Positions 41,364-60,809 of a stretch of DNA of 64,000 nt are shown here, piece by piece. Source of the DNA: an uncultured Candidatus Saccharibacteria bacterium (GTDB lineage Bacteria; Patescibacteriota; Dojkabacteria; SC72); NCBI GenBank assembly GCA_964655705.1, contig CAZZPP010000002.1:32231-96230 (forward strand), written 5' to 3'. The notes beneath the pieces are model-generated. The model had not been told where the DNA came from. It did not search any database and saw only the letters and a list, made by a program, of their open reading frames with translations. The position numbers were made by a program, and so were the translations under genes. Position 1 is the first letter of the stretch; each line of letters starts with the position of its first letter.

Positions 41364-43166
41364 GTGGCCCAAGAGACACTTCTTACATATTTACAAAGAC
41401 AGGGTGTAATCAATTCTGCTGACGCTGTTAAAGTACAGGTTGAGAGAAGTCGCTCTCCTAAAAGTGAAGAGTCCATTATTAGGGAGATGGGTCTTGCAGA
41501 TGAGTTGTCAATTGCTAAAGCTAAGTCATATCTTTTCAATATCCCCTATGTTGATTTAATCGAGAATGATGTACCTGAGAGTGTAATTGCTGAGGTACCA
41601 ATAGATAATTTGAAAAAGTATAGGGCTGTTCCTTTTGAAAGAGGAGAGAATTTTGTTAAATTGGCAATGTTAGATCCTTTTGATGTTCAGGCAACACAGG
41701 CACTGCAAAGAAGATATCCTCCCAATACGAAGATAATTGTATATATTACTACAGAAGATGGCTTAAACTTTGTACTAGACAGGAGAATTGGTGATGTAAT
41801 GAGTTCTGAGGTTACACAGGCACTTGAGGATGTGGATGTACCTGTTCAAGAGATTGATGAAGATCCTAACCTAATTGATAGTATTGATTTAAAGAATGCT
41901 CCTGTTGCTAGAATAGTGAATTCGATTATGCAATATGCTGTTACATCTAAGACTTCAGATATCCATGTTGAACCTATGGAAACAAGACTAAGGATTAGAT
42001 TTAGAATCCATGGAGTAATGACCGAAAGACTTTCCCTTCCTAAGACTTTAGCTCCTGCAATAGTGTCTCGTATAAAGATTATGTCCAATCTTAAAATTGA
42101 TGAGAAAAGGGTCCCTCAGGATGGTAGATTCCAGATTAAAGTTAAAAATATTAAGGTTGATATTCGTGTTTCTGTTATGCCTATGATTCATGGTGAGAAA
42201 GTAGTTATGCGTTTACTTGAGTCTGATACCTCAGGTATTACTTTAGAGTCTACTGGTATGAGGGGGAATGCTTACAAGATATTTTTAGATGCTCTAACTG
42301 TTACCAATGGTATTGTATTGGTTACCGGTCCTACTGGTTCTGGTAAGACTAGGACTTTGGCATGTTCCTTAATTAAGGTCAATGATCCAGGAGTAAATAT
42401 CATCTCTTTAGAAAATCCTGTTGAAATTAGAGTCCCAGGTGTTACTCAAGTTCAAATTAATCCTGATGTTGGACTTACATTTGCTAATGGTTTGAGGTCT
42501 GTATTAAGACAAGACCCTGATATTGTTATGGTTGGAGAGATTAGAGACCAGGAGACAGCGGAGCTAGCTATACAGGCATCTCTAACAGGTCACTTAGTTC
42601 TTTCTACATTACACACTAACAGTGCTGCTGCAGCAATACCAAGGCTTTTAGATATGGGTATGGAGCCATATCTTTTGGCTTCTACAATTCGTGTTCTTGT
42701 TGCTCAACGTTTACCAAGAAAAATATGTACTAGATGTATTAAAGCAGTACCTGCTACTCCTGGGGAGGTACGTGAGATTACGGATTCTTTGTCTGGAATT
42801 AAAAATTTTGATTTAATTAAATATCTTACACAGGTAATTAGTGCTAAGAAGGCAAAGGGAGAGGAAGGTTCTGCAGTCTTGAAAGCTCCTGAGATTGGTG
42901 CTGATGGGCAACCGATAATATATGTGTATGAGGGTTCTGGTTGTGACAGGTGTGGTGGTTCTGGGTATTCTAGTCGTATTGGTATTTTTGAGGTATTGGA
43001 TGTTACTGAAAAAATTAGTAGAATGGTAATGGAGAATGTTACAGCTCAAGATATTGAGAACGAGGCAAAGAGTAATGGTATGATTACGATGACTCAAGAT
43101 GGCTTTTTAAAGGTACTCGAAGGAATTACTAGTATTGAGGAAGTCCTAAGAGTGTCAAAAGAATAA
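41364..43166 (+). CDS. pilB: Type IV pilus assembly ATPase PilB (GspE family)
   Basis: N-terminal GSPII_E_N domain. Walker A VTGPTGSGKT. Asp/His boxes. C-terminal tetracysteine (C..C..CDRCGGSGY). Confidence 0.85.
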   Translation: MAQETLLTYLQRQGVINSADAVKVQVERSRSPKSEESIIREMGLADELSIAKAKSYLFNIPYVDLIENDVPESVIAEVPIDNLKKYRAVPFERGENFVKLAMLDPFDVQATQALQRRYPPNTKIIVYITTEDGLNFVLDRRIGDVMSSEVTQALEDVDVPVQEIDEDPNLIDSIDLKNAPVARIVNSIMQYAVTSKTSDIHVEPMETRLRIRFRIHGVMTERLSLPKTLAPAIVSRIKIMSNLKIDEKRVPQDGRFQIKVKNIKVDIRVSVMPMIHGEKVVMRLLESDTSGITLESTGMRGNAYKIFLDALTVTNGIVLVTGPTGSGKTRTLACSLIKVNDPGVNIISLENPVEIRVPGVTQVQINPDVGLTFANGLRSVLRQDPDIVMVGEIRDQETAELAIQASLTGHLVLSTLHTNSAAAAIPRLLDMGMEPYLLASTIRVLVAQRLPRKICTRCIKAVPATPGEVREITDSLSGIKNFDLIKYLTQVISAKKAKGEEGSAVLKAPEIGADGQPIIYVYEGSGCDRCGGSGYSSRIGIFEVLDVTEKISRMVMENVTAQDIENEAKSNGMITMTQDGFLKVLEGITSIEEVLRVSKE

Positions 43167-43188
43167 ATTTAGGATATAATGAAAAACA

Positions 43189-44664
43189 ATGGAAGACAAT
43201 ACTGCCCAGAATAGTACGGTACAATACCCTGACTTATCTCAGGCTACTACACCAATTCAGACTCAACCTCCAGTTGGAGATTTTACCTCGCAGACACCTG
43301 GGGTGTCAGATATACCTATTCCTGTAATTCCTACTACACCACCTCCTACGACACAAGTATCTCCTCCAGCCCCTACTTTGCAACCAGCTGAAGAAGAGTT
43401 AATCAATATTAACGAGGCTTTGCCAATTAATGATTTAAACAAGGAGGTTCCACTTAAGGGAGTTGTTGAGAATGAGTTACAAGATATTATCCCAGATGAG
43501 AAGGTGCCTAAGGCTTTAAAAAGAGATCCTAAAAGGGATAATCTTTCGAAGCCTTTGGATGCAGATGAACTTCGTTCTGATGTCCTTCCTAAACTGTCTG
43601 ATACTTCCAAAATTGATGAACTTTTAAGGTATGCAATACAACATAATGCTTCTGATTTACACATTACTGCTGGGTATCCCCCAATTGTTAGGATTGATGG
43701 GGAATTAATGGAAATTAGTGAAGCAGTAATTACACCTGAGGAAGCAGAGAGTTTAATATTACCAGTATTAAGTGAAGAGAAAAGGGAGCTTCTAGAAGTA
43801 AACAGAGAAGTGGATTTAGCCTACTTCCATCAGGGTGAGAGTCAAGCAAGGTTCAGGATAAATGCCTACTATACAATGAAAAATATGGCAGCTGCATTCA
43901 GGTTAATTCCTTCTAGGGTAAGAAAGATTGATGAGTTGTTTCTTCCAAATATATATCATCAGTTTGCTCAACTTAAACAGGGATTCATATTAGTAACGGG
44001 TCCTACAGGACATGGTAAGAGTACTACTTTAGCAGCAATACTAGAAGAGATTAATATGACTAGATTTGCACATATTGTTACCATTGAAGACCCAATAGAG
44101 TATGTTTTTGAGGGTAAGAAATCATTGATTGATCAAAGAGAGATGAACGATGATACCCACTCTTGGCCAATTGCACTTAGAAGTGCACTAAGGCAGGATC
44201 CAGATGTAATACTTGTAGGAGAGATGAGAGACTATGAAACAATTGCTTCAGCTATTACACTTGCAGAAACAGGGCACTTAGTATTTGCTACACTACATAC
44301 TAATAGTGCAGCACAAACAGTAGATAGGATGATTGATGTATTTCCACATAATCAACAACCACAGATAAGGTTACAGCTATCAAATATCTTAGAAGCTATT
44401 GTAGCTCAGAGATTAATACCATTAGACAAGGGTGGTAGAAGAGCTGTATGTGAGATTATGATTGCTAATCCTGCAGTTAGGAATATGATTAGAGAGGCTA
44501 AGACACATCAGATTGATAACGTTATTCGAACGAGTGCAGATATTGGAATGGTTTCCTTAGAGAGATCTTTAGTTTCTCTTGTAAGGGAGGGTGTAATATC
44601 TGTCCAAAAAGCTCAGGAGTATGCTGTATTTCCTGAGGAAGTTTTAAGATTACTTAAAAGTTAA
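43189..44664 (+). CDS. pilT: Type IV pilus retraction ATPase PilT with about 140-aa Pro/Thr-rich N-terminal extension
   Basis: Core from IDELLRYAIQHNASDLHITAGYPPIVRIDG. Walker A LVTGPTGHGKST. HLVFATLHTNSAAQTVDRMIDVFP. AIRNLIRE-like motif (AVRNMIRE). Confidence 0.8.
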   Translation: MEDNTAQNSTVQYPDLSQATTPIQTQPPVGDFTSQTPGVSDIPIPVIPTTPPPTTQVSPPAPTLQPAEEELININEALPINDLNKEVPLKGVVENELQDIIPDEKVPKALKRDPKRDNLSKPLDADELRSDVLPKLSDTSKIDELLRYAIQHNASDLHITAGYPPIVRIDGELMEISEAVITPEEAESLILPVLSEEKRELLEVNREVDLAYFHQGESQARFRINAYYTMKNMAAAFRLIPSRVRKIDELFLPNIYHQFAQLKQGFILVTGPTGHGKSTTLAAILEEINMTRFAHIVTIEDPIEYVFEGKKSLIDQREMNDDTHSWPIALRSALRQDPDVILVGEMRDYETIASAITLAETGHLVFATLHTNSAAQTVDRMIDVFPHNQQPQIRLQLSNILEAIVAQRLIPLDKGGRRAVCEIMIANPAVRNMIREAKTHQIDNVIRTSADIGMVSLERSLVSLVREGVISVQKAQEYAVFPEEVLRLLKS

Positions 44665-44669
44665 ATAAT

Positions 44670-45911
44670 ATGCCAAATTTTACATACTCAGCTAGAGATA
44701 GCAAAGGAAAAGAGTTAAAGGGAAAGTTAGAGGCCAGAGATGCACAGGCAGTTGTTGAGATACTTCAGGATAAGGGGCTGGTTGTTGTTAATGTTAAAGA
44801 GAGGGCATCAATAGATTTAGAAGAGTTGGGTAGCATAAATATTGGTGGAGTTCCAATGAAGGACAAGGTTGTCTTTATGAGACAGCTTGCAACTATGGTA
44901 GGTGCTGGTTTACCTCTTACAAGGGGTTTACAAGTATTAGAGCAACAGATTGCTAACCCAATGTTTAAAAAAGTAATTACTCAGGTAAAGGCTTCGGTAG
45001 AGGCTGGTAAGAGTTTAGCTGATTCTTTTAGGCAGTCAGATGAGGTATTTGATGATATTACTATTAACCTCATTGAGGCTGGTGAGTCTAGTGGTAATTT
45101 AGATGAGATATTGAATAAGTTAGCCATTGAGTTAGAAGAGGGTAAAAAATTACAAGGTAAACTTAAGGGAGCACTTACCTATCCAGTTATTCTTTTAGTC
45201 ATAATTGTTGGAGTTATGGTATTAATGATGTTAGTGTTAGTTCCTGCAATGAGTGATATATATGGTGAGTTTGGAGGAGAGTTACCAACAATAACAAGGA
45301 TAATGGTTGCTATGAGTGATTTCTTCATAAATTACTGGTGGGCATTGCTTGTAGCTCTTTTAGGATTAATAATTGGATTTAAAGTTTGGGTAGATACTCC
45401 TAATGGTAAGAGGAGTTGGAACAAGATTATCCTTAAGATTCCAATTATGGGTGTAATTGTTAGTAAGATGCAAATTGCACAGTTTACTAGAATATTGGGT
45501 CTTTTACTAAGTAGTGGTCTGTCCATTATTAGGGCATTAGAACTTACAGCTATGTCACTTAGTAATGTAATGTTTAAAGAGGTAGTACTAGAAGCAAGAG
45601 ATGAGGTAGAAAAGGGTGGCTCTTTAGCTCTTCCAATTGCTAGGAGTGATTACTACCCTCTCATTGTTAGTAGTATGATTGCAGTTGGTGAAGAGACTGG
45701 TGAGTTAGATACAGTATTGTCTAAAGTATCTCAGTATTACAAAGAGGAGGTTGATCAGGCTACAGAGAATATGTCTTCTTTACTAGAGCCTATTTTCCTT
45801 GTAATTATGGGTATTGCTGTAGCTTTCATAGCACTGGGAGTATATACACCTATGTTCCAACTTTCAGAGGTTATGGGTATGGTAGTTGACTTTGTTAGTT
45901 TAATTGTATAA
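44670..45911 (+). CDS. pilC: Type IV pilus inner-membrane platform protein PilC (GspF family)
   Basis: MPNFTYSARDSKGKELKGKLEA N-terminus and two GspF repeats, each with TM helices. Confidence 0.85.
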   Translation: MPNFTYSARDSKGKELKGKLEARDAQAVVEILQDKGLVVVNVKERASIDLEELGSINIGGVPMKDKVVFMRQLATMVGAGLPLTRGLQVLEQQIANPMFKKVITQVKASVEAGKSLADSFRQSDEVFDDITINLIEAGESSGNLDEILNKLAIELEEGKKLQGKLKGALTYPVILLVIIVGVMVLMMLVLVPAMSDIYGEFGGELPTITRIMVAMSDFFINYWWALLVALLGLIIGFKVWVDTPNGKRSWNKIILKIPIMGVIVSKMQIAQFTRILGLLLSSGLSIIRALELTAMSLSNVMFKEVVLEARDEVEKGGSLALPIARSDYYPLIVSSMIAVGEETGELDTVLSKVSQYYKEEVDQATENMSSLLEPIFLVIMGIAVAFIALGVYTPMFQLSEVMGMVVDFVSLIV

Positions 45912-45954
45912 GTTATATATATTAATTAAATAATTTTTTATTTTATATAAACTA

Positions 45955-46572
45955 ATGAATAGAAAATATTCAGGTTTTACACTAGTAGAGATGCTTATCG
46001 TAATGGGTATTATCATTATCCTTATGGTAGTTGGTATCACTGCTGGTAGATTTGCTATCAATAGAGCAAATGATGTAGCACATCAAAATGCTGTTGACCA
46101 ACTTTATACTTCCCTTCAAGCATTCTATACAGATGAAAGGCAGTATCCAGATGAGTCTATTTGTGGTGCGGGTGGATGTACTATCCAAAATTTAGTTTCT
46201 GGTACAACATGTGCTGACCCCTTAGGGACTAAAACAGATTGCTTCTTAGTACCATATATTGACCAAGATGCTTTTGATGGAGGTAGTGAAGCCACATATT
46301 ACTATGGTATTGGTGGAGATAGTGGCAATCAAGCAGTATTAGCATGTGTTTCAATGAGAGGAAACTATGAGGGAAATTTCGACACCACCAGAAATGATGG
46401 TATTGTATATTGTTCTGGAAACGGCTTCGGAATAGCTATGGATTTCACTGGAGTGGGTACTGGGACGGGTTTTACAGTAGCAACAAAGGAAACAAGAGAT
46501 GACGATCCTGCCTGGGCAGGTTTTGATGCTTTAGATGACGAGTCAGATTGGGATGGTGATACCTGGGAATAA
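45955..46572 (+). CDS. pilA: Type IV pilin (candidate major pilin)
   Basis: Class III signal KYSG|FTLVEMLIVMGIIIIL (Gly-1, Glu+5). Gly/Thr/Asp-rich C-terminal tail with Cys pairs. Confidence 0.75.
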   Translation: MNRKYSGFTLVEMLIVMGIIIILMVVGITAGRFAINRANDVAHQNAVDQLYTSLQAFYTDERQYPDESICGAGGCTIQNLVSGTTCADPLGTKTDCFLVPYIDQDAFDGGSEATYYYGIGGDSGNQAVLACVSMRGNYEGNFDTTRNDGIVYCSGNGFGIAMDFTGVGTGTGFTVATKETRDDDPAWAGFDALDDESDWDGDTWE

Positions 46573-46665
46573 AAATAATAATCCCTAAATCATTAAAAAC
46601 TGATAACCCCCTCCTTTTGAGGGGGTTTTCCTTTCATATTTCATAAAAATATATATAATGGGTAT

Positions 46666-47430
46666 ATGCATATATATTTTACATTCATAATATTTCTCTT
46701 TGGATTAGTAATAGCAAGTTTTTTAAATGCACTGCTGTATAGAATAGATAACGGATATAAATATCCAGATATCTTTATTAAAGGATCTCACTGTGAGAAA
46801 TGTGGTAAGTTACTTAAAACATACGAATTAATACCAGTAATATCATATTTCATATTTAAAGGTAAATGCCCTGTATGTAAATACAAAATACCACTATATT
46901 ACCCTATCTCTGAATTAATGTTAGGTATTGGTATGGCAAGTATATATTACTACTCTCTATCCCCTATCCTATACATTGTATTACTCTTCTTCTTCTCTTT
47001 CTCATATTACGACAGGATATACAAAGGGGTACCCCAATCCCTAGTAAACATCTATCTCATATTCTCTGTCATATATCTTTTTTTTAATATCCTCTCTACA
47101 CACTCAATACCCCCAAACGCCATATTAGTAGGTATGGGGTTTTCTGTATTTATTCTAATTGTTGGAAAGATTATGAAGAAACCCTTCGGTATGGGTGATA
47201 TACTAGTTCTTTTGGGATTAAGTATTGTATTAAGTCTTAAACTTTACATTGGGTATATATATATCTTCTTAATACTATCTAGTGTATATTCCTTAGTTAC
47301 AATTATATCTAAGAAAAGAACTACTAAATCATCCATTGCCCTACTTCCCTTTATGTATATCTCTCTGTCCTTACTATTTCTTCTTAACAAAGTAGTTATA
47401 GATATTTTCTTAAAGGTATTTTACTTTTAA
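46666..47430 (+). CDS. pilD: Prepilin peptidase PilD (peptidase A24)
   Basis: GLVIASFLNALLYR. Tetracysteine CEKCGK ... GKCPVCKYKI. Multiple TM helices. Confidence 0.85.
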   Translation: MHIYFTFIIFLFGLVIASFLNALLYRIDNGYKYPDIFIKGSHCEKCGKLLKTYELIPVISYFIFKGKCPVCKYKIPLYYPISELMLGIGMASIYYYSLSPILYIVLLFFFSFSYYDRIYKGVPQSLVNIYLIFSVIYLFFNILSTHSIPPNAILVGMGFSVFILIVGKIMKKPFGMGDILVLLGLSIVLSLKLYIGYIYIFLILSSVYSLVTIISKKRTTKSSIALLPFMYISLSLLFLLNKVVIDIFLKVFYF

Positions 47431-47502
47431 GTATTCTTCTCTATTGAGTAGTTAGTAAAATTTTGTTAAATTATATATAGTTATACTTTAGAAGAACTGT
47501 CC

Positions 47503-48474
47503 ATGAAAAAAGTAAAGAAAGTATTCCATGCATTTACCCTAGTAGAAGTTCTTGTTGTCCTATCCATATTCATCATACTCTCTGCTATTGGATTTAATGG
47601 GTTTTTAGCAATTAGAGAAACATTCATAGCTAAAGAAAATGTTGAATTAATCATTCAAGATATTAGATCTGCTAGATTAAAAGCAATGAATATGGAAAGA
47701 GGTGATGAATCTAATTGGATATATGGCTTTGGAATAGATTTTAGGAATGCAGATTGGAATTATGCGCGAAAGAATGGTTTGACTTCTGTTGGAGATTACA
47801 GAATGTTTAAATGGTGTGCTCCAGTATCAGAATACAAGCAGAGTATGGATCTAGCAGGGACAGACTATAACCTAACAGGAGGAGTATTACCTAATTATTA
47901 TACTGGTATCAATTTAGGCGTTGAAATTAATGGCGTATCACAATGCTATGAAGCTATCGACCCTTATATGAATGGAAGAATACCCTTTGACTGTGGTAAT
48001 GATGGCTATATAGATAGTTGTCAGGCAGGAAGTACTAGTCTTGTATCAATAGTTGGAGAGGGACTTACTCTCTTAGACAGAGAAGAAGAACAATTGCAGA
48101 TATATACTACTAGAGATGATAAGGGGGATTTTGACTTTATACCATCTTTCCTCTTTTTTGAATCTCTTACGGGTAGGACAATAATATATGATGATAATGG
48201 GATACCTCTTAACTATGATTTTGCACTTAATTTTACTTCAGACAGTTTTACTCCAGTTGATATCATTCTTCCAAGAATTAGGAGTGAGAAGTTTGATATG
48301 ATTACCATATATCCACTTTCTGGAGAAATTATCCATCATGTATACAGTAGTAGTGACTTGAATACTGATAACAGTTGCCCACCCGGTCGAGGTGGACTTG
48401 ACTGTATCCGCTTTGAAGGCAATACTTACAACAGATATGGTATTGAAGAAGAGATTAAATCATACAGGGATTAA
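47503..48474 (+). CDS. Pilin-like protein (minor pilin / pseudopilin), 323 aa
   Basis: N-terminus FHA|FTLVEVLVVLSIFIIL (Ala at -1, Glu+5) followed by a large globular domain with Cys pairs. Confidence 0.55.
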   Translation: MKKVKKVFHAFTLVEVLVVLSIFIILSAIGFNGFLAIRETFIAKENVELIIQDIRSARLKAMNMERGDESNWIYGFGIDFRNADWNYARKNGLTSVGDYRMFKWCAPVSEYKQSMDLAGTDYNLTGGVLPNYYTGINLGVEINGVSQCYEAIDPYMNGRIPFDCGNDGYIDSCQAGSTSLVSIVGEGLTLLDREEEQLQIYTTRDDKGDFDFIPSFLFFESLTGRTIIYDDNGIPLNYDFALNFTSDSFTPVDIILPRIRSEKFDMITIYPLSGEIIHHVYSSSDLNTDNSCPPGRGGLDCIRFEGNTYNRYGIEEEIKSYRD

Positions 48475-48476
48475 AT

Positions 48477-49058
48477 ATGGAAAAGAATGTAACAAAATAT
48501 TTGGGTATGGGTTTCGCAGAAAGTCTCATAGCCTTAATGATTGCTGGAATGGTTGGGATAGTATTAATGCAAATATCTGCTTCAACATTAAGAGAATTAG
48601 CACAGTTAGATATTGAGGATACAATTGCTAAGTATGCGGTTTCTACATCTGTAGATTTACAAAAAATTGCAATTCAAGATATGACTTTGGAAAAAGATGA
48701 AAGGCAGTTTGACATTACGACATTGGTTGAAAATTTCTGTTACAATATCGAACAGAATTCAGATACCACGCCAAGTCCAGGAGATTACTCTGTTCGTTTA
48801 AATACTGATTCTTCAGTTACATGTCCCGGAGAGGAAGGTGCTAGCAGAGAAAATTTTACAAAAATTCTTTCAGACAAAGATATTGATGGTGATGATAACT
48901 ATGACGAAACTGACTACTTTAGGGTACTTCGTGTTGTACGAATTGAAGAGAAGAGAGCTGTAGTTGAAGTTATTGTTGGTGTAACCAATATGGCTGGTGA
49001 ATTTACTACAAACAAGGATATTAGAGATTTTAGATATTTAGTAATTATTGCGTTATGA
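48477..49058 (+). CDS. Pilin-like protein with atypical prepilin motif
   Basis: LGMG|FAESLIALMIAGMVGIVLM: hydrophobic N-terminal helix, Glu at +3 rather than +5. Confidence 0.4.
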   Translation: MEKNVTKYLGMGFAESLIALMIAGMVGIVLMQISASTLRELAQLDIEDTIAKYAVSTSVDLQKIAIQDMTLEKDERQFDITTLVENFCYNIEQNSDTTPSPGDYSVRLNTDSSVTCPGEEGASRENFTKILSDKDIDGDDNYDETDYFRVLRVVRIEEKRAVVEVIVGVTNMAGEFTTNKDIRDFRYLVIIAL

Positions 49059-49762: not shown

Positions 49763-49803
49763 GGAAATGTTAGTTATATAATATATTTTATTATTGAAAT
49801 AAT

Positions 49804-51713: not shown

Positions 51714-51732
51714 TAAATAAATATATACAAAT

Positions 51733-54243
51733 ATGAAAATAACAAAAAGAGTGCTATATAGTATCCCAATTCTAATCCTTTTTCTTTCATTAATACCTTT
51801 GTCATTAATATTTAGAAATCGAGTTTATGCGTGTAATCAGGTTTGTTGTAATGATGGGGATGCTAGTTATCCAGAATGGGTAGCATCTTGTGGAAGTCCA
51901 AACGTGAGTTATAGGGATACCGGATGTGAATGTGGGTCTCATGATGCTGGGTGTGATTGCTTAGAAATCCCCGTCCCTGAAGTAGGAGTTTGCAGAAATG
52001 GCACACAACAATGCTGTAGCCCGACATGGTGTAAACCTGATACCCCACCCTGTGTATTATGTACTCCCACCTGTCCTTCCCCATTTCGTGGTACCCCACC
52101 AGTTAATCCTCCTGATAGCCCAGATTTGTATAAGTATGAAAAAATAGGTTCTTGTAATAATACTAATTGTGCTGAGGCAAAATCTTACAAAACATGTTAT
52201 GAACCCATGAGTCCTCAACCCGATCCTTCCCTTAATATCCATCCTGAAAAAATTAAAACTTCATTAGGTTTCACCTCTGACTACTATACAGGAGGAGGAA
52301 GATATACTGAAGATAAGGATGATACAGTCAATGATTTCTATGCATATTCAACTGTAAGATATTCTGCAAAAGAGGATCTCTTCTATATTACAGCCATATA
52401 TACAGATTTAGATAACCCAATAGAAGCAGCATATATATGGTTTAACCAATCAGCTACCAAACCTGCTACTCCACAGCTATTTGATTTCTTAAATGATACA
52501 ACACCTTCAAGTTATGGCTACGGTACTGATAATCAATTCGGTTTCATGATCCATCGTAATCTTGCAAATAATGGAGAAGTAAAACCATATGTATTCGCCC
52601 AAGGAACTTGGGATAAGCCTCTAAATTCAACTACTAGAGATGGGATAACAATCTTTTCTTTACCATATGACAATACCAGTTCAATGGCCAATATCCTACT
52701 CTACTCTGTTGTACCAAGTAATGATGGAAAGACTCTAACAATGGAATTTAGTGTTAGTTTTAAAAATGATACAACAGGAGATCTACTAAGTAATAGACCT
52801 GCAGAGGGTCAGTACAATATATGGTTAATGGCAAATGATACATTTGGTTTTACTCCATACAATTACTATAAATCTCCACCCGCTGCAGCCATTGTAGTAC
52901 AGAAGGTGAATGTTAGGTGGATAAATGATGAGAAAATAAGATATTATAATCAATGGATCACTAATGGTGATAAATGGAATCTAAACTTTCTTTCACCTGG
53001 TATAAACTTTGGAACCTCTCCTGAGGGAACTACAAAAGTTAAACTTACATGGGATTATCTAGATAATGATTTTAGCGATATGGTTTTAAATATGTATAAA
53101 AGCCCAGATTTAAATATAGGGGATATTAGAAGTGATGATTTAGGTGCTTTTTCTACAAATGGTGGTACAACGTATTTGAATAGTAATTTTGAATTAAAAG
53201 GGGATCAATCTGCTGACACTATTGGGCATCTTAATGCTACTGAAAGCAACTATCTCTTTAAAATAAGTGGAGGTACTGGAGATGGTTCAGTTAATCTAGA
53301 TTTGGGAAATGATGTAGGACAGGGTTCATTGTATTTCTATGTAACTGCTTTTGACAAGGGGGGTAATATTAACGCTCAAAGCCAAGTTGAGTTAGATTTA
53401 AGAGACTGGATGATTACTCAAGGGGGATTACTTAAGGCAAATGATATTAAAGTAGATACAGACAAAGAAATCGTTGGCACATGGAGTGGTATCAACTATC
53501 TGAATAGAATATCTAAAGAGAGTGTAGATATAAGTACAGAGTTAGCAGGTATTGGAAGTAACTCTTCTGTATACTCTTTAAAGAGTTCGAGTATTGGATC
53601 CTACCTTATAAAACCTTTTGAAGTAGTAAATCCTGATGATGGCTACTATACTACATACAAAATACTCTTTGACAGGAGAAAGGATTCACTAGATATTCAG
53701 GATTTAGGAAATATCGCTTCACTCGAGAATTCTTTAAACACAGATGAAGGGAAGATTGCTGTGGGAGAATCTCAAGGGGATTTAACTGTAGACAAGAATT
53801 TTGAATGTAATGGACAAGGTATATTCTTTGTTGCTGGGAATCTAATTGTTGATGATAAAATTTCAAATGGTAAAGAGAACAAAGATGCATGTATTTTCAT
53901 TGTAAAAGGTGATGTTACTATTAAAGATGAACCTGGAGATAGTACTTTTGGTTATGATGTTATTAATATGTATTTACTAACTGATGGGAAGATAACTATT
54001 CAGAAGGCAACAGGGGGTACAGTCTATGATGGTCTATACATTAGTGGAGGTGTACATACTCTTATGCAAGAAGCAGATGGTACTATGGCTTTGGAAATGA
54101 AAAGAACACTTCAGGTTGCAAACAGATTAAGATATCCTGCTTTAGTAGTTAATCATCATTCTAAATATGGATTACTAGGTGGTAGGGTATTTGGTTCTGA
54201 GTCACAGATGCAAGAGGTAGAGGTAGGTGTTACTGGGTATTAA
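51733..54243 (+). CDS. Large secreted Cys-rich protein (paralog A), candidate pilus-associated adhesin
   Basis: Signal peptide. About 20 Cys in the first 120 mature residues. Middle and C-terminal blocks are homologous to the 1019-aa paralog (GFMIHR/GFMLRR, FGFTPYNYY/FSFTPYDNY, CIFIVKGDVTI/CIFLVEGDVSI, HSKYGLLGG/HPKYGVLGG). Confidence 0.55.
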   Translation: MKITKRVLYSIPILILFLSLIPLSLIFRNRVYACNQVCCNDGDASYPEWVASCGSPNVSYRDTGCECGSHDAGCDCLEIPVPEVGVCRNGTQQCCSPTWCKPDTPPCVLCTPTCPSPFRGTPPVNPPDSPDLYKYEKIGSCNNTNCAEAKSYKTCYEPMSPQPDPSLNIHPEKIKTSLGFTSDYYTGGGRYTEDKDDTVNDFYAYSTVRYSAKEDLFYITAIYTDLDNPIEAAYIWFNQSATKPATPQLFDFLNDTTPSSYGYGTDNQFGFMIHRNLANNGEVKPYVFAQGTWDKPLNSTTRDGITIFSLPYDNTSSMANILLYSVVPSNDGKTLTMEFSVSFKNDTTGDLLSNRPAEGQYNIWLMANDTFGFTPYNYYKSPPAAAIVVQKVNVRWINDEKIRYYNQWITNGDKWNLNFLSPGINFGTSPEGTTKVKLTWDYLDNDFSDMVLNMYKSPDLNIGDIRSDDLGAFSTNGGTTYLNSNFELKGDQSADTIGHLNATESNYLFKISGGTGDGSVNLDLGNDVGQGSLYFYVTAFDKGGNINAQSQVELDLRDWMITQGGLLKANDIKVDTDKEIVGTWSGINYLNRISKESVDISTELAGIGSNSSVYSLKSSSIGSYLIKPFEVVNPDDGYYTTYKILFDRRKDSLDIQDLGNIASLENSLNTDEGKIAVGESQGDLTVDKNFECNGQGIFFVAGNLIVDDKISNGKENKDACIFIVKGDVTIKDEPGDSTFGYDVINMYLLTDGKITIQKATGGTVYDGLYISGGVHTLMQEADGTMALEMKRTLQVANRLRYPALVVNHHSKYGLLGGRVFGSESQMQEVEVGVTGY

Positions 54244-54268
54244 GAATATATATTAATTTAGAAGAATT

Positions 54269-55285
54269 ATGAAAAGTCCTTTTAAAATCTCTAAAAAATT
54301 AATGTTTATATTGGTCTTGATTCTTTTAGTTTCTTTGGTGTTGGTATCCAGTCTACTTATTGATATTACAAAAAGAAAGAAAGAACAGGTCGAGGGGTAT
54401 GCCCTTTTTGGAGATTTTGTACTCTATGACGAAGTCTCAAAGTACCCTCCTCTAGTGGGTTGCCTAATCAATGTCGAAGGGTTTAGTAATATGTGTTTTA
54501 AAGTTAAGAATCAAGGATTTTACAAAGCAGATTTCTTAGGCGCATACCCTGATGTTCAACTCCTTCCTAGTGGTTTTTATATATTTGAATTTAGTGAGAA
54601 ATCATTAAGAGAATATTCTGTAGATAGAGATGAATTATTTGAAAAGTGGTATACAGAATTAGTTAATGCTCAAGATGAATTTAGTAAAGAGGTCGGTGGT
54701 GTAAGGCATGTAGATGCATATAATTTGGGCCAGTTAAGAAATATTCAGATGTCTAAAGGGGATCTCTCCTCTGATGATTATAAGGCCGAAATGGATGGAT
54801 ATGTAGGAAAGGAATACAACATTCTCTTTCCGATGAAATACTCGGATTTTGATTATACTTGTAGCATCTCGAAGGATATGTGCTCATTTTGGGAAAGGAA
54901 ACAATCAATCCCCTATTCAATTATAGAGGATTTTAATGACAATCCTGAGTTTGATTTTGAGAATAAGAAGTTAATTTACTCAAGTGTTGGGATATTAATT
55001 AGAGGTCTTAACTCTTTGAATACAAGTACATTTGAGAATGATTATATGCTTCTTGAGTATGAAGAATTCATGGCAAATTTGCTTGAAAAATCCGAATTCG
55101 AATCAAGAGATAAGGTCCTATTTATGGGAGAGTACATTCCTTTCTTCCTTCTTGATTTATTAGACACCTTCTATGAAAATTGGGAAGGGGAATCTCGAGA
55201 CTACTACCTTCTTCTTCTTGATTCTTCCTGTGGAAGCGAAGAATGCTTAGAAATTAAACTTAATATTCTCTATGATGCATACTAG
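54269..55285 (+). CDS. Hypothetical membrane-anchored protein between the two paralogs
   Basis: N-terminal TM, Cys-containing. 338 aa, no motifs. Confidence 0.4.
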   Translation: MKSPFKISKKLMFILVLILLVSLVLVSSLLIDITKRKKEQVEGYALFGDFVLYDEVSKYPPLVGCLINVEGFSNMCFKVKNQGFYKADFLGAYPDVQLLPSGFYIFEFSEKSLREYSVDRDELFEKWYTELVNAQDEFSKEVGGVRHVDAYNLGQLRNIQMSKGDLSSDDYKAEMDGYVGKEYNILFPMKYSDFDYTCSISKDMCSFWERKQSIPYSIIEDFNDNPEFDFENKKLIYSSVGILIRGLNSLNTSTFENDYMLLEYEEFMANLLEKSEFESRDKVLFMGEYIPFFLLDLLDTFYENWEGESRDYYLLLLDSSCGSEECLEIKLNILYDAY

Positions 55286-58200
55286 GATTAGGTATCCGCT
55301 TTTACTATTTTTTTTGTCTGTACTTCTTTTTTCGGTATCAGCTACAACTAGTGTATATGCATATCCATATTGTTCAAAAGGCATGTGTGTGGAAGGGTTT
55401 ACTCCTGGGACGTGCTTTCCCGAGGCTTGCATGTCCTCCTGTGTACAAGATTGTTATCCAGATAATTGTGACACAAGTGATTTCTGTGGGGGTAAAAAAT
55501 ATTATCAAAGTGCCGAGTGTTGTACCGCCGGTTCAGTTGACTGGGGTGGGACCTGTACTCAGGACTGCGATTGTACTGAGAGTTGTTGTGACCCATCTAC
55601 AACCTGTTCATGCTCATCCCCATATACAAACAGTTCTACAGGTTATGGGTCCTTTGGTATAAGTTGTGGTGATGGGTGTGGAGGAACAGCATATGACAAC
55701 TGTTACTGTCAAAGTAATTGTACTCCTCCCTCATGTCCAGATGGGACTTCAGGAACTGCATCAACACCTGTTTCTCCAATGTATTCTGTACCATCTGGTA
55801 GTTCTGACTATTATTCTTCTCCGAGTTGTACTAACTATTGTAATAAATCCAATGATAGGGATTGTTACTGTGATATATGTTTGCCTCCTACCTGTGAGGA
55901 AGTTAATTATTTTTCTGCAAAGCAGTATGACGATCTAAACGATTACCAAGGAGAAGTCCCATATGGTAAAACAGCAAGCTGTAGAAACGGAGAGGGCTTA
56001 CCCGTTGCAAATCAAACTGCTAATTGTTCCAAAACATATAGGACTTGTTACTGTACATCCTGTCTAAAGAATTGCCCTTTAGGTCTGTATAATACATCCC
56101 AGTCTCTTTCACCTCTCCCTAACCTCATATTAGAAAGTTTTAGGGAATGTACTAATGATTGTGATGTTAAACCTGACGAATCAATTGATGACTGTTATGA
56201 AGCACCATCTCCTCAACCTGAAGGAATCTTCAGTATAGTGACAGATGGCCCTGCTCCTAATCCAAATGGGTACAACTTCTTAAGCCTAACTCACACAGGA
56301 GATCGCCTGAGTTTAGGTAGTAAAGTTGGGAATCTAAATGACCCCCTACTCCCAATTAAAATGGAAGCTAAATTTACAGATAGTAATGGAGCAAGTGATA
56401 TAGAAGGGATGTTTGTATGGTTTAGGGAAAAAGAATATGATGGTACAACATTAAACTCCCCCATATATATTAATACAGGTAAAACACCACAAGCACCAAC
56501 AAATAATAGTTGGGGTTTTATGCTCAGAAGAGTTGGTGCCGATTGGGTACCATATGTCCCCTCCTTTAGACCTTCTAATCCAAACCTAGAACCACATTGG
56601 ACACCAGCAGCCTTAGAAGACCCAGCCACCTATTTCAAGAAATTTTACATTGCTGGTTCTGATGGGAATAGGATGGTTCAAGTTACAATTCTGGACGATC
56701 CAGTCATTGGTCTTAATGATGTAACAATGACATTCAGTTTAGCATTTTCTAATTCTGAGGGTTCGTTATTTACGGATGCTGTAGGAGAAGGAGATTACAA
56801 CATACTACTACTAGGATTAGACAAATTCAGTTTTACTCCATATGATAACTATCCCCCATCAGGTGCAGGATGGAACTTTGCAGACTACTGGTCAACAGGC
56901 TATCTGTATGATTCATACACTGATTTTAGTCCTTTCTGGAAGTCTGACCAATTAAGATACAGAGCAACCCCAACCCCAGCCCAAACATACGCTAGAGCAT
57001 GGAAAGATACAGGAGAGAATTGGGTAATAGATAGGACGCCACCTGTAATAGACAATTTCGTAGTAGAAAAAGCTGATGTTGAGGGTAATAAATTGAAGAT
57101 AAAATGGCAAGTCCATGATAATATTCAGAGTAATAACCCAGGAAACCTCTATACTGTTGTTGGGAATATCTTCTCATCTTCAGGATCACTTGCAAGGCAG
57201 ATAACTCTGTCACCGAAAGACTTGGGTATATCAGTAAAGGAAACCTTTGTCCCTGTAGGAGTATCCGATGATGTGATTGGTCTCATCAATGGCTACTGGT
57301 CTTTTAGAGTTAACCCAAATATTAACTCTTCAATAAACAGTGGTATTGTAGAGGTTGATATTGGTGAGAACACATCAGGAATATTCTCTTTCTACCTAAC
57401 AGTATTTGATGATGCCGGGAATACTACTCATTTTTCTCAAGTAGATTTTAATCTTGCAGATTGGTTTGCTACAGCAGGAGGTTTGGCTTACTCTGAGGAC
57501 GGCTCTTTGTTTTCAACAAAAGAAGGTGTAGCTTTCGGTGGGCTCTTTCCACCCTACACTACCCCAGTTAACCCTGGTCTGACCCAAGACACTGCAGATT
57601 CCTCAAGTGAACTTTGGGGAACTTTAATAGATACTTTGTCAGCACCAGTTAAGAGTCTTTCTTCTAGTTACAATATCACTAATTACAGAGGTAATGGATT
57701 AAACCTAGGATACTACTTTACATTAATGAAAGCATATGAACAGAACAAGAGTAAGATAGAGGACCAGTTATATGAACAAACTTTTGATCCTCCGTCCTCT
57801 CTTTCCTCTCTTGCTTCTGAAGTTACTACATACTGTGCTCTCCATTATACTGGAGACCTAACAGTCAATTCTAATTTTGTATGTAACAAACCAACCTTAA
57901 TTACAGTAAAAGGAAATCTAAAACTAAATCCCCCCATATTAAGTGCATCCCCAGATGCTATCCACTCCTCAAATGGCTGTATATTCTTGGTAGAAGGAGA
58001 TGTATCAATTAATCCTGGAGGACAGGTTTCTGACAATACTAATCTTGGATATGACAAGGTACATGCATATATACTTGCAGATGGTCAGATTACTATTGAA
58101 GGGGAAGATACAAATGCAACAATAATGGATGGACTATATATTAATGGAGGACTGAACTCTTCGTATATTGGGGATTTAAGTATTAAAGTGGATAGATATC

Positions 58201-58331
58201 TATGGTTAAAACAGAGATTAGACTTTCCAGTACTAGCTATAGACTATCATCCAAAGTATGGAGTATTGGGAGGTATATTTTTTGGCTATGATTATGTAAT
58301 GCAGCCTGTTGAGGTAGGTCCAAAGCCATAG
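55272..58331 (+). CDS. Large secreted Cys-rich protein (paralog B), candidate pilus-associated adhesin
   Basis: Signal peptide MMHTRIRYPLLLFFLSVLLFSVSATTSVYA. More than 60 Cys in the first 300 residues. Shared C-terminal domain with paralog A. Confidence 0.55.
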   Translation: MMHTRIRYPLLLFFLSVLLFSVSATTSVYAYPYCSKGMCVEGFTPGTCFPEACMSSCVQDCYPDNCDTSDFCGGKKYYQSAECCTAGSVDWGGTCTQDCDCTESCCDPSTTCSCSSPYTNSSTGYGSFGISCGDGCGGTAYDNCYCQSNCTPPSCPDGTSGTASTPVSPMYSVPSGSSDYYSSPSCTNYCNKSNDRDCYCDICLPPTCEEVNYFSAKQYDDLNDYQGEVPYGKTASCRNGEGLPVANQTANCSKTYRTCYCTSCLKNCPLGLYNTSQSLSPLPNLILESFRECTNDCDVKPDESIDDCYEAPSPQPEGIFSIVTDGPAPNPNGYNFLSLTHTGDRLSLGSKVGNLNDPLLPIKMEAKFTDSNGASDIEGMFVWFREKEYDGTTLNSPIYINTGKTPQAPTNNSWGFMLRRVGADWVPYVPSFRPSNPNLEPHWTPAALEDPATYFKKFYIAGSDGNRMVQVTILDDPVIGLNDVTMTFSLAFSNSEGSLFTDAVGEGDYNILLLGLDKFSFTPYDNYPPSGAGWNFADYWSTGYLYDSYTDFSPFWKSDQLRYRATPTPAQTYARAWKDTGENWVIDRTPPVIDNFVVEKADVEGNKLKIKWQVHDNIQSNNPGNLYTVVGNIFSSSGSLARQITLSPKDLGISVKETFVPVGVSDDVIGLINGYWSFRVNPNINSSINSGIVEVDIGENTSGIFSFYLTVFDDAGNTTHFSQVDFNLADWFATAGGLAYSEDGSLFSTKEGVAFGGLFPPYTTPVNPGLTQDTADSSSELWGTLIDTLSAPVKSLSSSYNITNYRGNGLNLGYYFTLMKAYEQNKSKIEDQLYEQTFDPPSSLSSLASEVTTYCALHYTGDLTVNSNFVCNKPTLITVKGNLKLNPPILSASPDAIHSSNGCIFLVEGDVSINPGGQVSDNTNLGYDKVHAYILADGQITIEGEDTNATIMDGLYINGGLNSSYIGDLSIKVDRYLWLKQRLDFPVLAIDYHPKYGVLGGIFFGYDYVMQPVEVGPKP

Positions 58332-58403
58332 TATGTAATTGATTTTAAAGATTGTTAAATATCTGCTATTATATTAGTAGTCATAATTTAACTGTCCATT
58401 AAT

Positions 58404-59432
58404 ATGGCTAAATTGCCAGATCATGTAGGCATAGACTTTGGAACACATACTGTAAAAGCCGTTGAATTAAAGAATATTCTTTCAACTCCCCAATTAGTTA
58501 ATTTGGGTGTACAACTTACCCCAAAAGGAGTCATAAATAGTGAAGAGAGACAAGACCAAAAGAAATTAGCAGAAGCCCTTAAACTTCTCTATGCTAATTC
58601 TAGGTTTAAAAACGTTAATGTAGTAATGGCATTACCTGAGTTTTCGGTATTTACTCGATTTTTGGAATTCCCTGGAGTTAAACAAGATGAATTAAAACAA
58701 GCTGTATACTATGAAGCTAAGCAGTATATACCAGTACCAATTGAGGATGTACAAATGAGTTATGTAGTTATTGGTTTTAATCAAGAGAAAAATGCTGCCA
58801 GAGTATTGTTAGTTGCAGCTCCTAAAAAGATAATTGAGATATATATGAATGTAGCTAATTTTGCTAATCTAGACCTCATTGCAATAGAGACAGAATCTGT
58901 GGCTATGGGTAGAGCCATGTTTAGATCTATGAGAAAAAAGGATTGTGTAATGCTTGATTTTGGTGCTAACAGTACAGATATGAGTATTATGACAAACGGT
59001 GCCCTAGTATTCTCCCAAAGTATTCCCATTGGGTCTGATTCTTTAACACAGGCAATAATTAACAAGTTCAATTTTGATTACAACAGAGCTGAACAATTCA
59101 AGAGAAACTATGGGTTGCTACCAACTGTATTGGAAGGGAAGATATATGGAGCACTTTTACCAATAGTTGAATCCATAATGATTGAGGTAAGAAGAGGAGT
59201 AGAATTCTACAAAAACAAAACAATGAGTTCCCCTCCAATGGAGTATTTGCTGAATGGTGATGGTGCCCTACTCCCAGGATTAATGGAGTATGTTTCTAAA
59301 TCACTAGGGGTCAGTGCACAAATTGCAAATCCATGGAATAATATAGCTATGGATAATAGATTTAAAAATACATTAGCCAAGACAGGGTCATCATACTCTG
59401 TAGCAATAGGATTAGCATTAAAAGATGAGTAA
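58404..59432 (+). CDS. pilM: Type IV pilus assembly protein PilM (actin-like ATPase fold)
   Basis: VGIDFGTHTVKAVEL N-terminus. Two actin-like subdomains (DFGANSTDMSI). Confidence 0.75.
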   Translation: MAKLPDHVGIDFGTHTVKAVELKNILSTPQLVNLGVQLTPKGVINSEERQDQKKLAEALKLLYANSRFKNVNVVMALPEFSVFTRFLEFPGVKQDELKQAVYYEAKQYIPVPIEDVQMSYVVIGFNQEKNAARVLLVAAPKKIIEIYMNVANFANLDLIAIETESVAMGRAMFRSMRKKDCVMLDFGANSTDMSIMTNGALVFSQSIPIGSDSLTQAIINKFNFDYNRAEQFKRNYGLLPTVLEGKIYGALLPIVESIMIEVRRGVEFYKNKTMSSPPMEYLLNGDGALLPGLMEYVSKSLGVSAQIANPWNNIAMDNRFKNTLAKTGSSYSVAIGLALKDE

Positions 59433-60114
59433 CCAAGATACCCAACAACAGAATAGCACTCAGATGAAACAGCCTCCTGTTAACCCACAACAGCCTGTGC
59501 AACCCACCCCTCCTCCTCCTCCAAATGCTCCTACACTAGCTGAGCCTCAAAGTAACCAAGTTGCGGAGGGTGTTAACTTGATACCTTCTTTAACCAAAGA
59601 ACAGAAGACTCAAGTTAAGAAGAAGAATACCTTAAATATTGGATCAATACTTAGTATTATTGTATTTGTAACAATATCCATAGGGATTGTAGGCTTCAAT
59701 ATTGTAACTAAGTCTCAGTTAAGTTCTAAGCAGAATTCTTTAAAGAGGATTGAGAATACTGTTAAATCTAAGGTAGACAAGATTACATCTAACAATGTCA
59801 TATTAAAAAGGATTAAACTATATCAGGAAGTAGATGAGAATAGTTTTTCTCACAAAGAGATTATTGAATTCTTCCTTGAGATATCTAAAAGGGTTGCAGG
59901 AATCACATATGATAGTATAGAGATATCAGAGAACCTCTCTTTCAATGTTTCAGGTAAAGGACCTGATTTAGAGCAGTTAGCTAGATTGTGGTATATACTA
60001 GGAGTAAATGAGAATATTGAGAGTGTAATGTTAGAAGGTTTTTCAAAGACTGAACAAGGAGCCAACTTTTCATTTGAGGGAGTGTTAATTTTAGACAATT
60101 TTAAAAACGAATAG
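59425..60114 (+). CDS. pilN: PilN-like bitopic pilus alignment protein
   Basis: Pro/Gln-rich N-terminus. VNLIP motif (PilN INLLP). Single TM. Periplasmic-type domain. Confidence 0.5.
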   Translation: MSNQDTQQQNSTQMKQPPVNPQQPVQPTPPPPPNAPTLAEPQSNQVAEGVNLIPSLTKEQKTQVKKKNTLNIGSILSIIVFVTISIGIVGFNIVTKSQLSSKQNSLKRIENTVKSKVDKITSNNVILKRIKLYQEVDENSFSHKEIIEFFLEISKRVAGITYDSIEISENLSFNVSGKGPDLEQLARLWYILGVNENIESVMLEGFSKTEQGANFSFEGVLILDNFKNE

Positions 60115-60116
60115 AT

Positions 60117-60809
60117 ATGGGATTAACTAATACTAAAACAGAGAAAAAAAGAAGGGAGGAGTTTAATGTAATAGCCGAGAAGAAAAGGAAGAGTAAACTT
60201 ACCTTGGGAGATTTAATTATTCCTTTAGCTTCAGGTGCTGTATTAATCATTCTTTCTTTTGCAGTGTTTGTACCTATGGTTAAATCAGCATTTGAGTTTC
60301 TTGGAGAGATTAAGGTTGTTCAGGGAAAGATCGAGCAAATGGACAAATTAAACAAGCAGTTAGACAGATTAGAAGAGAATCAATTAAATGAAGATGTACT
60401 TACCTCTAGAGAGGTTATACCAACTATTCTGCTTGTATCTGATTTGGTATATTACTTGGATAATTTAGCAAAATCTCTTAACTTAGAGATCTCTAAACTC
60501 TCTTCTTCGGATTCCTTAAATTCTGTATCTGGACCAGTTGGGTATGAAGGGGAGTATAACAATGTACTATCTTTTCTTGATGAGGCTCAGAATGTATCTC
60601 CATATATGCTTAGGTTAGAAAATGTTGAGGTTAGTCGTAGGGCTAATGAGGAAGAAGTAGATACATGGAATATTGAATTAAGGGTAAGTGGTTACTATAT
60701 GGCAGATGAAAAAGAAGAGCCAAATATATATGCTAACTTCCAGTTATATACTGAGTACGATGATATTGTTGAAATATTTAAAGTAAAGGCAGCGAACAAA
60801 TTAAAATAG
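60117..60809 (+). CDS. pilO: PilO-like bitopic pilus alignment protein
   Basis: N-terminal TM, coiled-coil (MDKLNKQLDRLEENQ) and C-terminal domain. Position after pilM-pilN. Confidence 0.45.
   Translation: MGLTNTKTEKKRREEFNVIAEKKRKSKLTLGDLIIPLASGAVLIILSFAVFVPMVKSAFEFLGEIKVVQGKIEQMDKLNKQLDRLEENQLNEDVLTSREVIPTILLVSDLVYYLDNLAKSLNLEISKLSSSDSLNSVSGPVGYEGEYNNVLSFLDEAQNVSPYMLRLENVEVSRRANEEEVDTWNIELRVSGYYMADEKEEPNIYANFQLYTEYDDIVEIFKVKAANKLK

Follow-up and report, generated by a model that had tools for sequence, protein, structure and literature searches.

We describe two large paralogous proteins, BIG-A and BIG-B, encoded in a type IV pilus (T4P) locus (positions 41364-60809) on a 64,000-nucleotide stretch of contig CAZZPP010000002.1 (the window; coordinates refer to it and, unless marked (-), to its + strand). 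The genome is that of an uncultivated ultra-small bacterium of Candidatus Dojkabacteria/candidate division WS6, which belongs to the Candidate Phyla Radiation (CPR)/Patescibacteria, and the named homologs come from the same lineage. Computation alone leads us, with confidence slightly above even, to the view that BIG-A and BIG-B are Sec-exported modular adhesins carried on T4P, most likely at the tip. CPR/Patescibacteria depend on attachment to other cells, and T4P are their most conserved surface machine; to our knowledge, the molecules that give these pili their target specificity are known in CPR for one cultivated Saccharibacterium only. The BIG family would give uncultivated Dojkabacteria, and possibly related lineages, a candidate specificity determinant.

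BIG-A and BIG-B: variable heads and a conserved C-terminal module

BIG-A (51733-54243, 836 aa) and BIG-B (55272-58331, 1019 aa) were described in an earlier note on this DNA as paralogs, each with a signal peptide, a Cys-rich N-terminus and a single shared C-terminal domain. Proper alignment confirmed that the two are true paralogs (BLASTP, 29% identity over 831 columns, E 3e-56), and the overall architecture held. The C-terminus is conserved as described; however, the homology takes in the entire ~680-aa region C-terminal of the Cys-rich part, which comprises three domains and not one. The duplication that gave rise to BIG-A and BIG-B is older than the divergence of the genomes compared. Word-indexed searches returned 23 A-type homologs at 36-47% identity and 56 B-type homologs at 32-95% identity, all of which are annotated as 'hypothetical' or are unnamed, while sequence searches of Pfam, NCBIfam and PDB gave no significant match for BIG-A or BIG-B. 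Similarly, no catalytic family was detected in the two proteins in Pfam and NCBIfam.

Both proteins start with a Sec-type signal peptide with n-, h- and c-regions that ends in V-Y-A immediately before the first Cys. In BIG-A, it spans residues 1-33 (V-Y-A/C, with the slash marking the cleavage site here and below; 51733-51831), as read from the sequence by the three regions and the -3/-1 rule. In all BIG orthologs, an AXA-like site lies directly N-terminal of the first Cys. Neither BIG-A nor BIG-B has a prepilin motif, an N_methyl match, a C-terminal transmembrane (TM) segment or an LPXTG motif.

The Cys residues are concentrated in the N-terminal part, with 18 of 20 within the first 200 residues of BIG-A and 38 of 41 within the first 350 residues of BIG-B. 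The variable head of BIG-A (residues 34-155, 51832-52197) holds 18 Cys, and the confidence of the AlphaFold2 (AF2) model is low for residues 28-101. The head of BIG-B (residues 31-308, 55362-56195) holds 38 Cys, with moderate AF2 confidence for residues 110-310, and is built from a repeated 6-Cys module, C-x3-C-x7-C-Y-C-x2/3-C-x3/4-C, with copies at residues 132-155, 186-208 and 252-268 and a terminal copy, C-x3-C-x10-CYE, at residues 293-308. A conserved junction, C-Y-E...S-P-Q-P, closes the last copy. The heads had been likened to EGF or knottin modules. This identity is not supported: no EGF or knottin model in Pfam matched BIG-A or BIG-B, EGF-type models gave sub-threshold matches in one of 51 family members each (EGF_integrin, 0.018; EGF_2, 0.43), and the Cys module is repeated and family-specific. 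The number of Cys is even in 30 of the 51 members, which is not decisive as an argument for disulfides. Large Cys-rich extracellular proteins have been noted before in CPR genomes, without a link to pili (PMC4736985).

AF2 models of BIG-A (pLDDT 76.7, pTM 0.69) and BIG-B (pLDDT 71.0, pTM 0.58), built from alignments of 51 and 53 sequences, have the same layout, i.e. a signal helix, the Cys-rich head, two beta-sandwich/Ig-like regions, a linker, a C-terminal domain and a tail. The Ig-like regions and the C-terminal domain are modelled with confidence, the linker with low confidence and the head poorly. In BIG-A, the beta-sandwich/Ig-like regions D1 (residues 156-380) and D2 (residues 400-563) are encoded at 52198-53421. 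The C-terminal domain consists of one helix followed by a regular beta-solenoid with three strands per turn, spanning residues 637-822 in BIG-A (53641-54198) and 813-1005 in BIG-B (57708-58286). This predicted solenoid is triangular and has an ice-binding-protein-like fold, as in the ComZ/PilX tip pilins; its closest structural relatives are non-enzymatic ice-binding proteins and the tip pilin ComZ, not lyases. From the pattern of strands, we infer that the ice-binding and ComZ fold matches belong to the C-terminal domain. Lower-ranked fold matches were to Ig-like stalk domains of Gram-positive adhesins and pilins (PrgB, AgI/II, SpaP, SiiE and Cna-B types), which the middle domains of BIG resemble. 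No pilin fold was present in either AF2 model.

The polypeptides end in a tail of ~14 residues that is disordered in both models (BIG-A, residues 823-836, ...Q-x-x-E-V-G-x-x-x-COOH, pLDDT <50, 54199-54240; BIG-B, 58287-58328). The terminal motif E-[VI]-G-[FVI]-K-P-Y-COOH, preceded by K-Y-G-[VIL]-L...F-G, is near-invariant across the family, the most distant members included. The predicted disorder would be as expected of a docking peptide, and we know of no sorting signal that the motif resembles.

A hidden Markov model (HMM) search of 1.84 billion cluster representatives returned 724 proteins at E <= 1e-3, 428 at E <= 1e-10 and 229 at E <= 1e-30, and the family thus comprises at least 724 clusters at 50% identity. 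Many distant members match only profile positions ~484-932, i.e. the C-terminal ~450 aa with the second Ig-like domain, the linker and the solenoid. At their N-termini, distant members carry Flg_new repeats, a Laminin_G_3/pentraxin lectin, VWA, DUF2341, a polysaccharide-lyase-like module or a GH130/GH43-like propeller. Moreover, some BIG-B orthologs have inserted Flg_new or Gly_rich_2 modules, and head length within the family ranges between 140 and 399 aa. A homolog search from one distant member (P0198) was dominated by the widespread GH130/GH43-like propeller and told us little about how widely the BIG core is distributed among taxa. When the A and B families are compared, conservation is highest in the solenoid (36% identity). 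Few genes of the locus evolve as fast as those for BIG, which have 35-45% identity where PilM has 75-90%. Head swapping and fast evolution are typical of adhesins and not of core machine parts.

Linkage of BIG to the pilus locus and to the pilin mp4

In 27 of 28 loci with usable flanks from GTDB-representative genomes, the BIG family is encoded between the gene for a receiver-domain protein (REC), together with a partner gene, and pilM-N-O. Upstream, these loci have the order pilB-T-C, a pilin gene, pilD and the minor pilin genes mp1-4, and the BIG copy number varies from 1 to 3. As an unbiased test of context, we scanned metagenomes using PilM and not BIG as the seed. Among loci with PilM at least 80% identical and at least 1.5 kb of upstream sequence, 20 of 20 have a BIG gene that ends 51-87 bp before pilM. 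In a sister clade, whose PilM is 69-73% identical, mp4 and a single BIG gene are present at two loci, while in fourteen (L069, L070 and L072-L083) REC is directly followed by pilM. Wherever the upstream sequence of these fourteen loci suffices, mp3 directly precedes REC; thus, mp4 is missing there together with the BIG and partner genes. Overall, 31 non-identical loci span mp3 to pilM, of which 20 have both mp4 and BIG and 11 have neither; discordant loci were not found.

The pilin mp4 (49804-50712, 302 aa) is a candidate PilX/GspK-like 'cap' pilin recognized by its pilin-like N-terminal motif. Its N-terminus, YSG/QAIAIIMVV, is kept in 20 orthologs and has no Glu at position +5, which sets mp4 apart from the four other pilins of the locus, all with Glu5. 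As for a cap pilin, the hydrophobic N-terminal helix is pilin-like, and the gene is the last of the four core minor pilin genes. PilX_N matched 6 of 20 mp4 family members, all below threshold (best E 0.0036); for mp4 itself, there was no significant match in Pfam or NCBIfam and no sequence match in PDB, whether with the single sequence or with a profile. The missing Glu5 and the weak resemblance to PilX_N are hallmarks of a PilX/GspK-type cap subunit. An HMM scan of the window detected the single mp4 gene and the two BIG genes, with no further copies.

The earlier note had named homologs commonly unlinked to T4P genes as grounds for rejecting a role at the pilus. This is partly the case: distant homologs do lie away from the T4P core genes in five loci (L040, L043, L044, L038 and L045), but three of the five adjoin a gene for an mp4-like pilin. 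In these three, the membrane partner, BIG and the mp4-like pilin occur together as a cassette four times (L040, L043 twice and L044), and the pilin of L044 matched an mp4 HMM built without it with E 8e-84. These cassettes outside T4P loci are an independent second line of evidence for the linkage of BIG and mp4.

Immediately upstream of each BIG gene lies a gene whose product is a membrane protein anchored at its N-terminus; these partner genes are additions to the earlier gene list. The partner of BIG-A, s185 (51156-51713), has an N-terminal hydrophobic segment; its orthologs precede BIG-A in related loci (27-58% identity), and its family includes forms of 530-605 aa (hhalign probability 93.6%, E 2e-7). 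The partner of BIG-B, s338 (54269-55285), is also N-terminally anchored, and its stop codon overlaps the BIG-B start by 14 nt. Since s338 evolves fast, its orthologs could be detected in no more than 6-7 loci. No significant match was found for s185 or s338 in Pfam, NCBIfam and PDB searches, and BLASTP and hhalign detected no similarity between the two. The partner proteins fall into at least five BLAST clusters, and a link was found only between the s185 type and the ~600-aa type (probability 93.6%). With partners in unlinked clusters and s185 and s338 dissimilar, a clean duplication of a two-gene unit of partner and BIG could not be shown.

We infer a pilus association and an adhesin function for BIG, as the earlier note had suggested, from the invariant place by pilM (20 of 20), the co-occurrence with mp4, the ComZ-like fold and the lectin and VWA heads of distant members. 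After Sec export, the signal peptide would be cleaved, and the C-terminal module (Ig-like domain, linker, solenoid and E-V-G-F-K-P-Y tail) would dock on the minor-pilin priming complex, specifically on the Glu5-less cap pilin mp4, perhaps with the EVGFKPY tail as the docking strand. The docked solenoid would form a 'tip plug', the role of the PilY1 C-terminal domain in the type IVa pili (T4aP) of proteobacteria. The upstream membrane-anchored protein would probably, and speculatively, retain exported BIG or hand it over before pilus assembly. BIG would end up at the pilus tip with its variable N-terminal head pointing outward and giving binding specificity, and the two paralogs would confer two specificities, used either alternatively or at the same time. 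As PilB and PilT extend and retract the pilus, the cell would then be pulled to the bound target, e.g. a host cell if the organism is an episymbiont. In total, BIG is best read as a PilY1/ComZ-like tip adhesin that is split from its cap pilin.

Several observations weigh against such a tip adhesin. The Cys-rich head was modelled poorly (pLDDT ~30), and no binding fold can be recognised in it. When BIG-B is compared with a 95%-identical relative (P0024), the differences are scattered across D1, D2 and the first turns of the solenoid, and no sign of diversification focused on the head is seen at this scale. The proposed PilX/GspK identity of mp4 comes from the missing Glu5, the gene order and sub-threshold Pfam matches. 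The 11 loci that have neither mp4 nor BIG are probably one clade, and perhaps reflect a single loss event, so that the two-by-two table overstates independence. Finally, BIG genes also occur without a pilin gene nearby. A short contig (L041) carries two BIG genes and no pilin gene, and L038 and L045 carry partner and BIG, without a pilin gene within 10 kb, next to VirB4/PrgI/TraC-like genes of a type IV secretion system (T4SS). In these two loci (L038, 5842-11152; L045, 8179-13462; rumen/other lineage), the genes for a partner of ~600 aa, with homology to the s185 family, and for a BIG relative of ~1160 aa are convergent to the T4SS genes. By analogy with the adhesin PrgB, the BIG family might also serve T4SS.

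Alternatively, the BIG proteins could be surface or secreted proteins that bind or degrade glycans, are co-regulated with the pilus but not borne on it, and are held by the anchored partner or released on host walls. The anchored partner gene found before every BIG gene, even where no pilin gene is nearby (L038 and L045), would fit this view, as would the polysaccharide-lyase-like or GH130/GH43-like modules of some distant members; moreover, beta-solenoids are common in polysaccharide lyases and tailspikes, and in a monoderm, Sec export alone is enough for release. We nevertheless consider it unlikely. The perfect co-presence and co-absence with mp4 and the joint relocation as a cassette would be difficult to account for if BIG were not physically linked to the pilus, the nearest structural relatives of the solenoid are non-enzymatic, and BIG-A and BIG-B matched no catalytic family.

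BIG might instead be a structural part of the pilus machine in this type of envelope, e.g. one that crosses the cell wall or S-layer as a collar or conduit and substitutes for the missing secretin. The constant place directly upstream of pilM in close relatives, the locus without a secretin and the multi-domain, beta-rich architecture would all be compatible with such a part. However, the fourteen sister-clade T4P loci in which pilM follows REC are otherwise complete and lack BIG, the copy number varies from 1 to 3, the proteins evolve fast and swap their N-terminal modules for lectin or VWA, and no TM segment, amphipathic ring or oligomerisation feature is predicted, which makes a structural role distinctly improbable. 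We give almost no credence to the idea that the C-terminal domain truly binds ice or acts as an antifreeze and so protects against freezing, which its fold might suggest: Ice_binding gave a sub-threshold match in one of 51 members (E 0.048) and none in BIG-A or BIG-B, the relatives come from anaerobic digester, activated sludge, fermentation and rumen metagenomes, i.e. mesophilic habitats, and the linkage to pilus genes would be left unexplained. The authors of the ComZ study likewise found the fold similarity uninformative on function (PMC6561018).

The type IV pilus locus and the remainder of the window

The T4P locus contains 17 open reading frames (ORFs), all on the + strand and overlapping or closely spaced, and its genes appear to belong to a single operon. 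The earlier note was confirmed in its gene content and coordinates, by Pfam for the core (T2SSE twice, T2SSF, A24_N_bact, PilM_2 and three N_methyl matches, all above curated cut-offs) and by motif, position and topology for mp2, mp4, PilN and PilO. The locus begins with the genes for the extension ATPase PilB (41364-43166, 600 aa; T2SSE 6.7e-123, MshEN 3.3e-11), the PilT-like retraction ATPase (43189-44664, 491 aa; T2SSE 1.1e-47, residues 142-418) and the platform protein PilC (44670-45911; T2SSF 7.4e-60, two repeats). The PilT-like ATPase has a Pro/Thr/Gln-rich low-complexity N-terminal extension of ~130 aa (43189-43580) ahead of the ATPase core, and its orthologs vary in length from 481 to 547 aa. 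The major pilin (45955-46572, 205 aa) has an N_methyl match (6e-7), the prepilin motif G/FTLVE with Glu5 and weak NCBIfam matches of the ComGC/PilA type. Directly 3' of its gene and 5' of pilD lies a terminator-like GC hairpin with a T-tract (46605-46627; 9-bp stem with 6 GC pairs), identified as a consensus match. The gap between the major pilin gene and pilD is a classic attenuator position, and the hairpin is a possible attenuator that would give an excess of pilin transcript. A promoter scan was uninformative (70 sites observed versus 83 expected).

The prepilin peptidase PilD (46666-47430) matched A24_N_bact (4.3e-24) and Peptidase_A24 (9.8e-4, under the Pfam gathering score). Downstream of pilD, mp1 (47503-48474, 323 aa) has an N_methyl match (3.9e-5), the motif A/FTLVE with Glu5 and a weak ComGD match below cut-off (5e-5), while mp3 (49055-49762, 235 aa) has an N_methyl match (3.2e-6) and the motif G/FSLVE with Glu5. 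Between them, mp2 (48477-49058, 193 aa) was assigned by its N-terminal motif, G/MGFAE, which is non-canonical and, as read from the sequence, includes Glu5 if cleavage follows the Gly; Pfam, NCBIfam and PDB searches gave no significant match for mp2, and its orthologs are syntenic across all related loci. The stand-alone receiver-domain protein REC (50748-51131, 127 aa; Response_reg 4e-23) is encoded at a constant position between the minor pilins and the BIG/pilM block and is among the most conserved of the locus, with 70-93% identity across related loci in which the BIG genes have 25-45%. No cognate kinase gene was found near REC.

The locus ends with the genes for PilM (58404-59432; PilM_2 8.3e-53) and the PilN-like (59425-60114, 229 aa) and PilO-like (60117-60809, 230 aa) proteins. 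The latter two, which gave no match in Pfam and NCBIfam searches, were assigned by their position and a single N-terminal TM segment; the orthologs of both are syntenic, with 37-71% identity for PilN-like. In agreement with the earlier note, no secretin was found in the locus, with some ORFs of the window left unscanned. Because secretin-less T4P loci are a known and widespread trait in CPR (PMC6744442), the pilus locus itself is ordinary for these bacteria. Several of the metagenome-assembled genomes with related loci are titled 'uncultured Candidatus Saccharibacteria', which is probably a placeholder label; their loci are syntenic with that of the window and encode PilM proteins 73-90% identical to its PilM, like the loci labelled Dojkabacteria/WS6.

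The G+C content is 31-39% over the whole window (2-kb windows) and 35-39% within the T4P locus. The locus is flanked by housekeeping genes, i.e. holB and an intein-containing gyrB upstream and the gene for RNase III downstream. GyrB (37207-40431 (-), 1074 aa) carries its intein between the GyrB domain and the Toprim domain (Intein_splicing 1.1e-23, residues 444-870, with a weak HNH_3 match inside). Further upstream, a tyrosine recombinase of the XerC/D type (19414-20832, 472 aa) has a catalytic match that spans residues 226-458 for a 172-position model, suggesting a sizeable insertion in the catalytic domain. Two large ORFs gave no match to Pfam, the BIG HMM or the mp4 HMM: one of 1205 aa (23577-27194) with an N-terminal TM segment and 11 Cys, and one of 716 aa (21273-23423 (-)) with no Cys and the N-terminal repeat NSQGxVKDVSxGEI. 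An 817-aa protein (11986-14439) has a TrwB_AAD_bind domain (1.9e-11) of the T4SS coupling protein; therefore, T4SS components exist in this genome too. The only tRNA gene in the 64 kb, tRNA-Leu CAA (7637-7720), overlaps the 5' end of an ORF that starts with GTG (7643-8548), and the start of this ORF is therefore probably mis-called.

BIG compared with known pilus-tip proteins and adhesins

The PilY1/PilC tip adhesins of proteobacterial and Myxococcus T4aP are, like BIG, large (~1000 aa) non-pilin proteins with a Sec signal peptide that are encoded together with four core minor pilins; in the window, the order is mp1-mp4, REC, partner and BIG. PilY1 also has a conserved C-terminal domain, thought to sit on a PilX-type cap pilin, and a variable adhesive N-terminus, sometimes with VWA, and several paralogs can occur per genome. 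However, the PilY1 Pfam domain matched neither BIG-A nor BIG-B (E <= 0.1) nor the 51 family members (E <= 1), and whereas the C-terminus of PilY1 is a beta-propeller, that of BIG is predicted to be a triangular beta-solenoid. Unlike in PilY1, the head of BIG is a Cys-rich repeat, and a dedicated gene for a membrane-anchored partner precedes each copy.

Modular type IV pilins of another monoderm, Streptococcus sanguinis (PilB with VWA and PilC with lectin), share with distant BIG relatives the adhesive VWA and ConA-like lectin modules. The streptococcal proteins are genuine pilins that have the pilin fold and a class III signal peptide; by contrast, BIG has a Sec signal and neither a class III signal nor a fused pilin module. 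DUF3494/type-1 ice-binding proteins (PF11999) have the fold of BIG in common but not the sequence signature, since neither BIG-A nor BIG-B reaches the Pfam gathering score for PF11999. Genomic context and habitat differ as well, and BIG has additional domains and the conserved C-terminal tail.

In Saccharibacteria, PilX1 and PilX2 are large proteins without a PilD-type signal, and PilX2 is needed for efficient host binding (PMC11623550). Like BIG, PilX1 and PilX2 of TM7x (Nanosynbacter lyticus) are large accessory-domain proteins from CPR T4P loci that have been proposed as tip adhesins, and by this analogy they would be the closest functional precedents for BIG within CPR. By the description in that paper, they carry as accessory domains an L-type lectin and a 7-bladed propeller, unlike the Cys-rich head, Ig-like domains and solenoid of BIG.

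The solenoid of ComZ (Thermus thermophilus, PDB 6qvi) is ice-binding-protein-like, located at the tip and inserted in a GspK-like tip pilin (PMC6561018), and cyanobacterial PilX pilins have the same triangular solenoid, which is proposed to replace the PilY1 'tip plug' (bioRxiv 10.64898/2026.02.12.705559). Like the role envisaged here for BIG, that proposed for ComZ and the solenoid PilX is as a tip plug or receptor. In ComZ/PilX, the solenoid is inserted within the pilin fold and is part of one polypeptide with the N-terminal pilin helix, whereas BIG is a protein of its own, secreted via Sec, that carries the solenoid at its C-terminus, and a neighbouring gene encodes the putative cap pilin mp4 (~300 aa). 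Consistently, no solenoid inserted in a GspK-like pilin fold was found in BIG, in which the Sec signal is followed by Cys modules, as in the AF2 models. Sequence similarity between BIG and ComZ/PilX is not detectable, and BIG adds the Ig-like domains and a swappable head.

The earlier note had called the family undescribed. This is true of the sequence family, which Pfam, NCBIfam and PDB do not cover; an ice-binding-like solenoid at the tip of T4P has, as a principle, been published before, for ComZ and for the PilX of cyanobacteria. What is new here is a proposed free-standing solenoid tip adhesin together with its cap pilin, exchangeable heads and a dedicated membrane partner. More tentatively, and with a chance that we put short of even, Dojkabacteria and related CPR may possess a portable three-gene 'tip cassette' of an anchored loader, a secreted solenoid adhesin and a Glu5-less cap pilin, i.e. 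a ComZ/PilX-type tip subunit split in two that docks via the solenoid and C-terminal peptide and whose heads (Cys-rich, lectin, VWA or glycosidase-like) are shuffled. If so, the hosts or surfaces open to these episymbiont-like bacteria would depend on the number of cassettes and the type of head, both of which could be deduced from genomes. Moreover, a constant docking module (Ig-like domain, solenoid and EVGFKPY tail) combined with a hypervariable head would allow host-range hypotheses to be tested from metagenomes and with recombinant heads. For the evolution of T4P, BIG would link three solutions to capping the pilus tip, i.e. the propeller of PilY1, the inserted solenoid of ComZ/PilX and the free-standing solenoid with its cap pilin.

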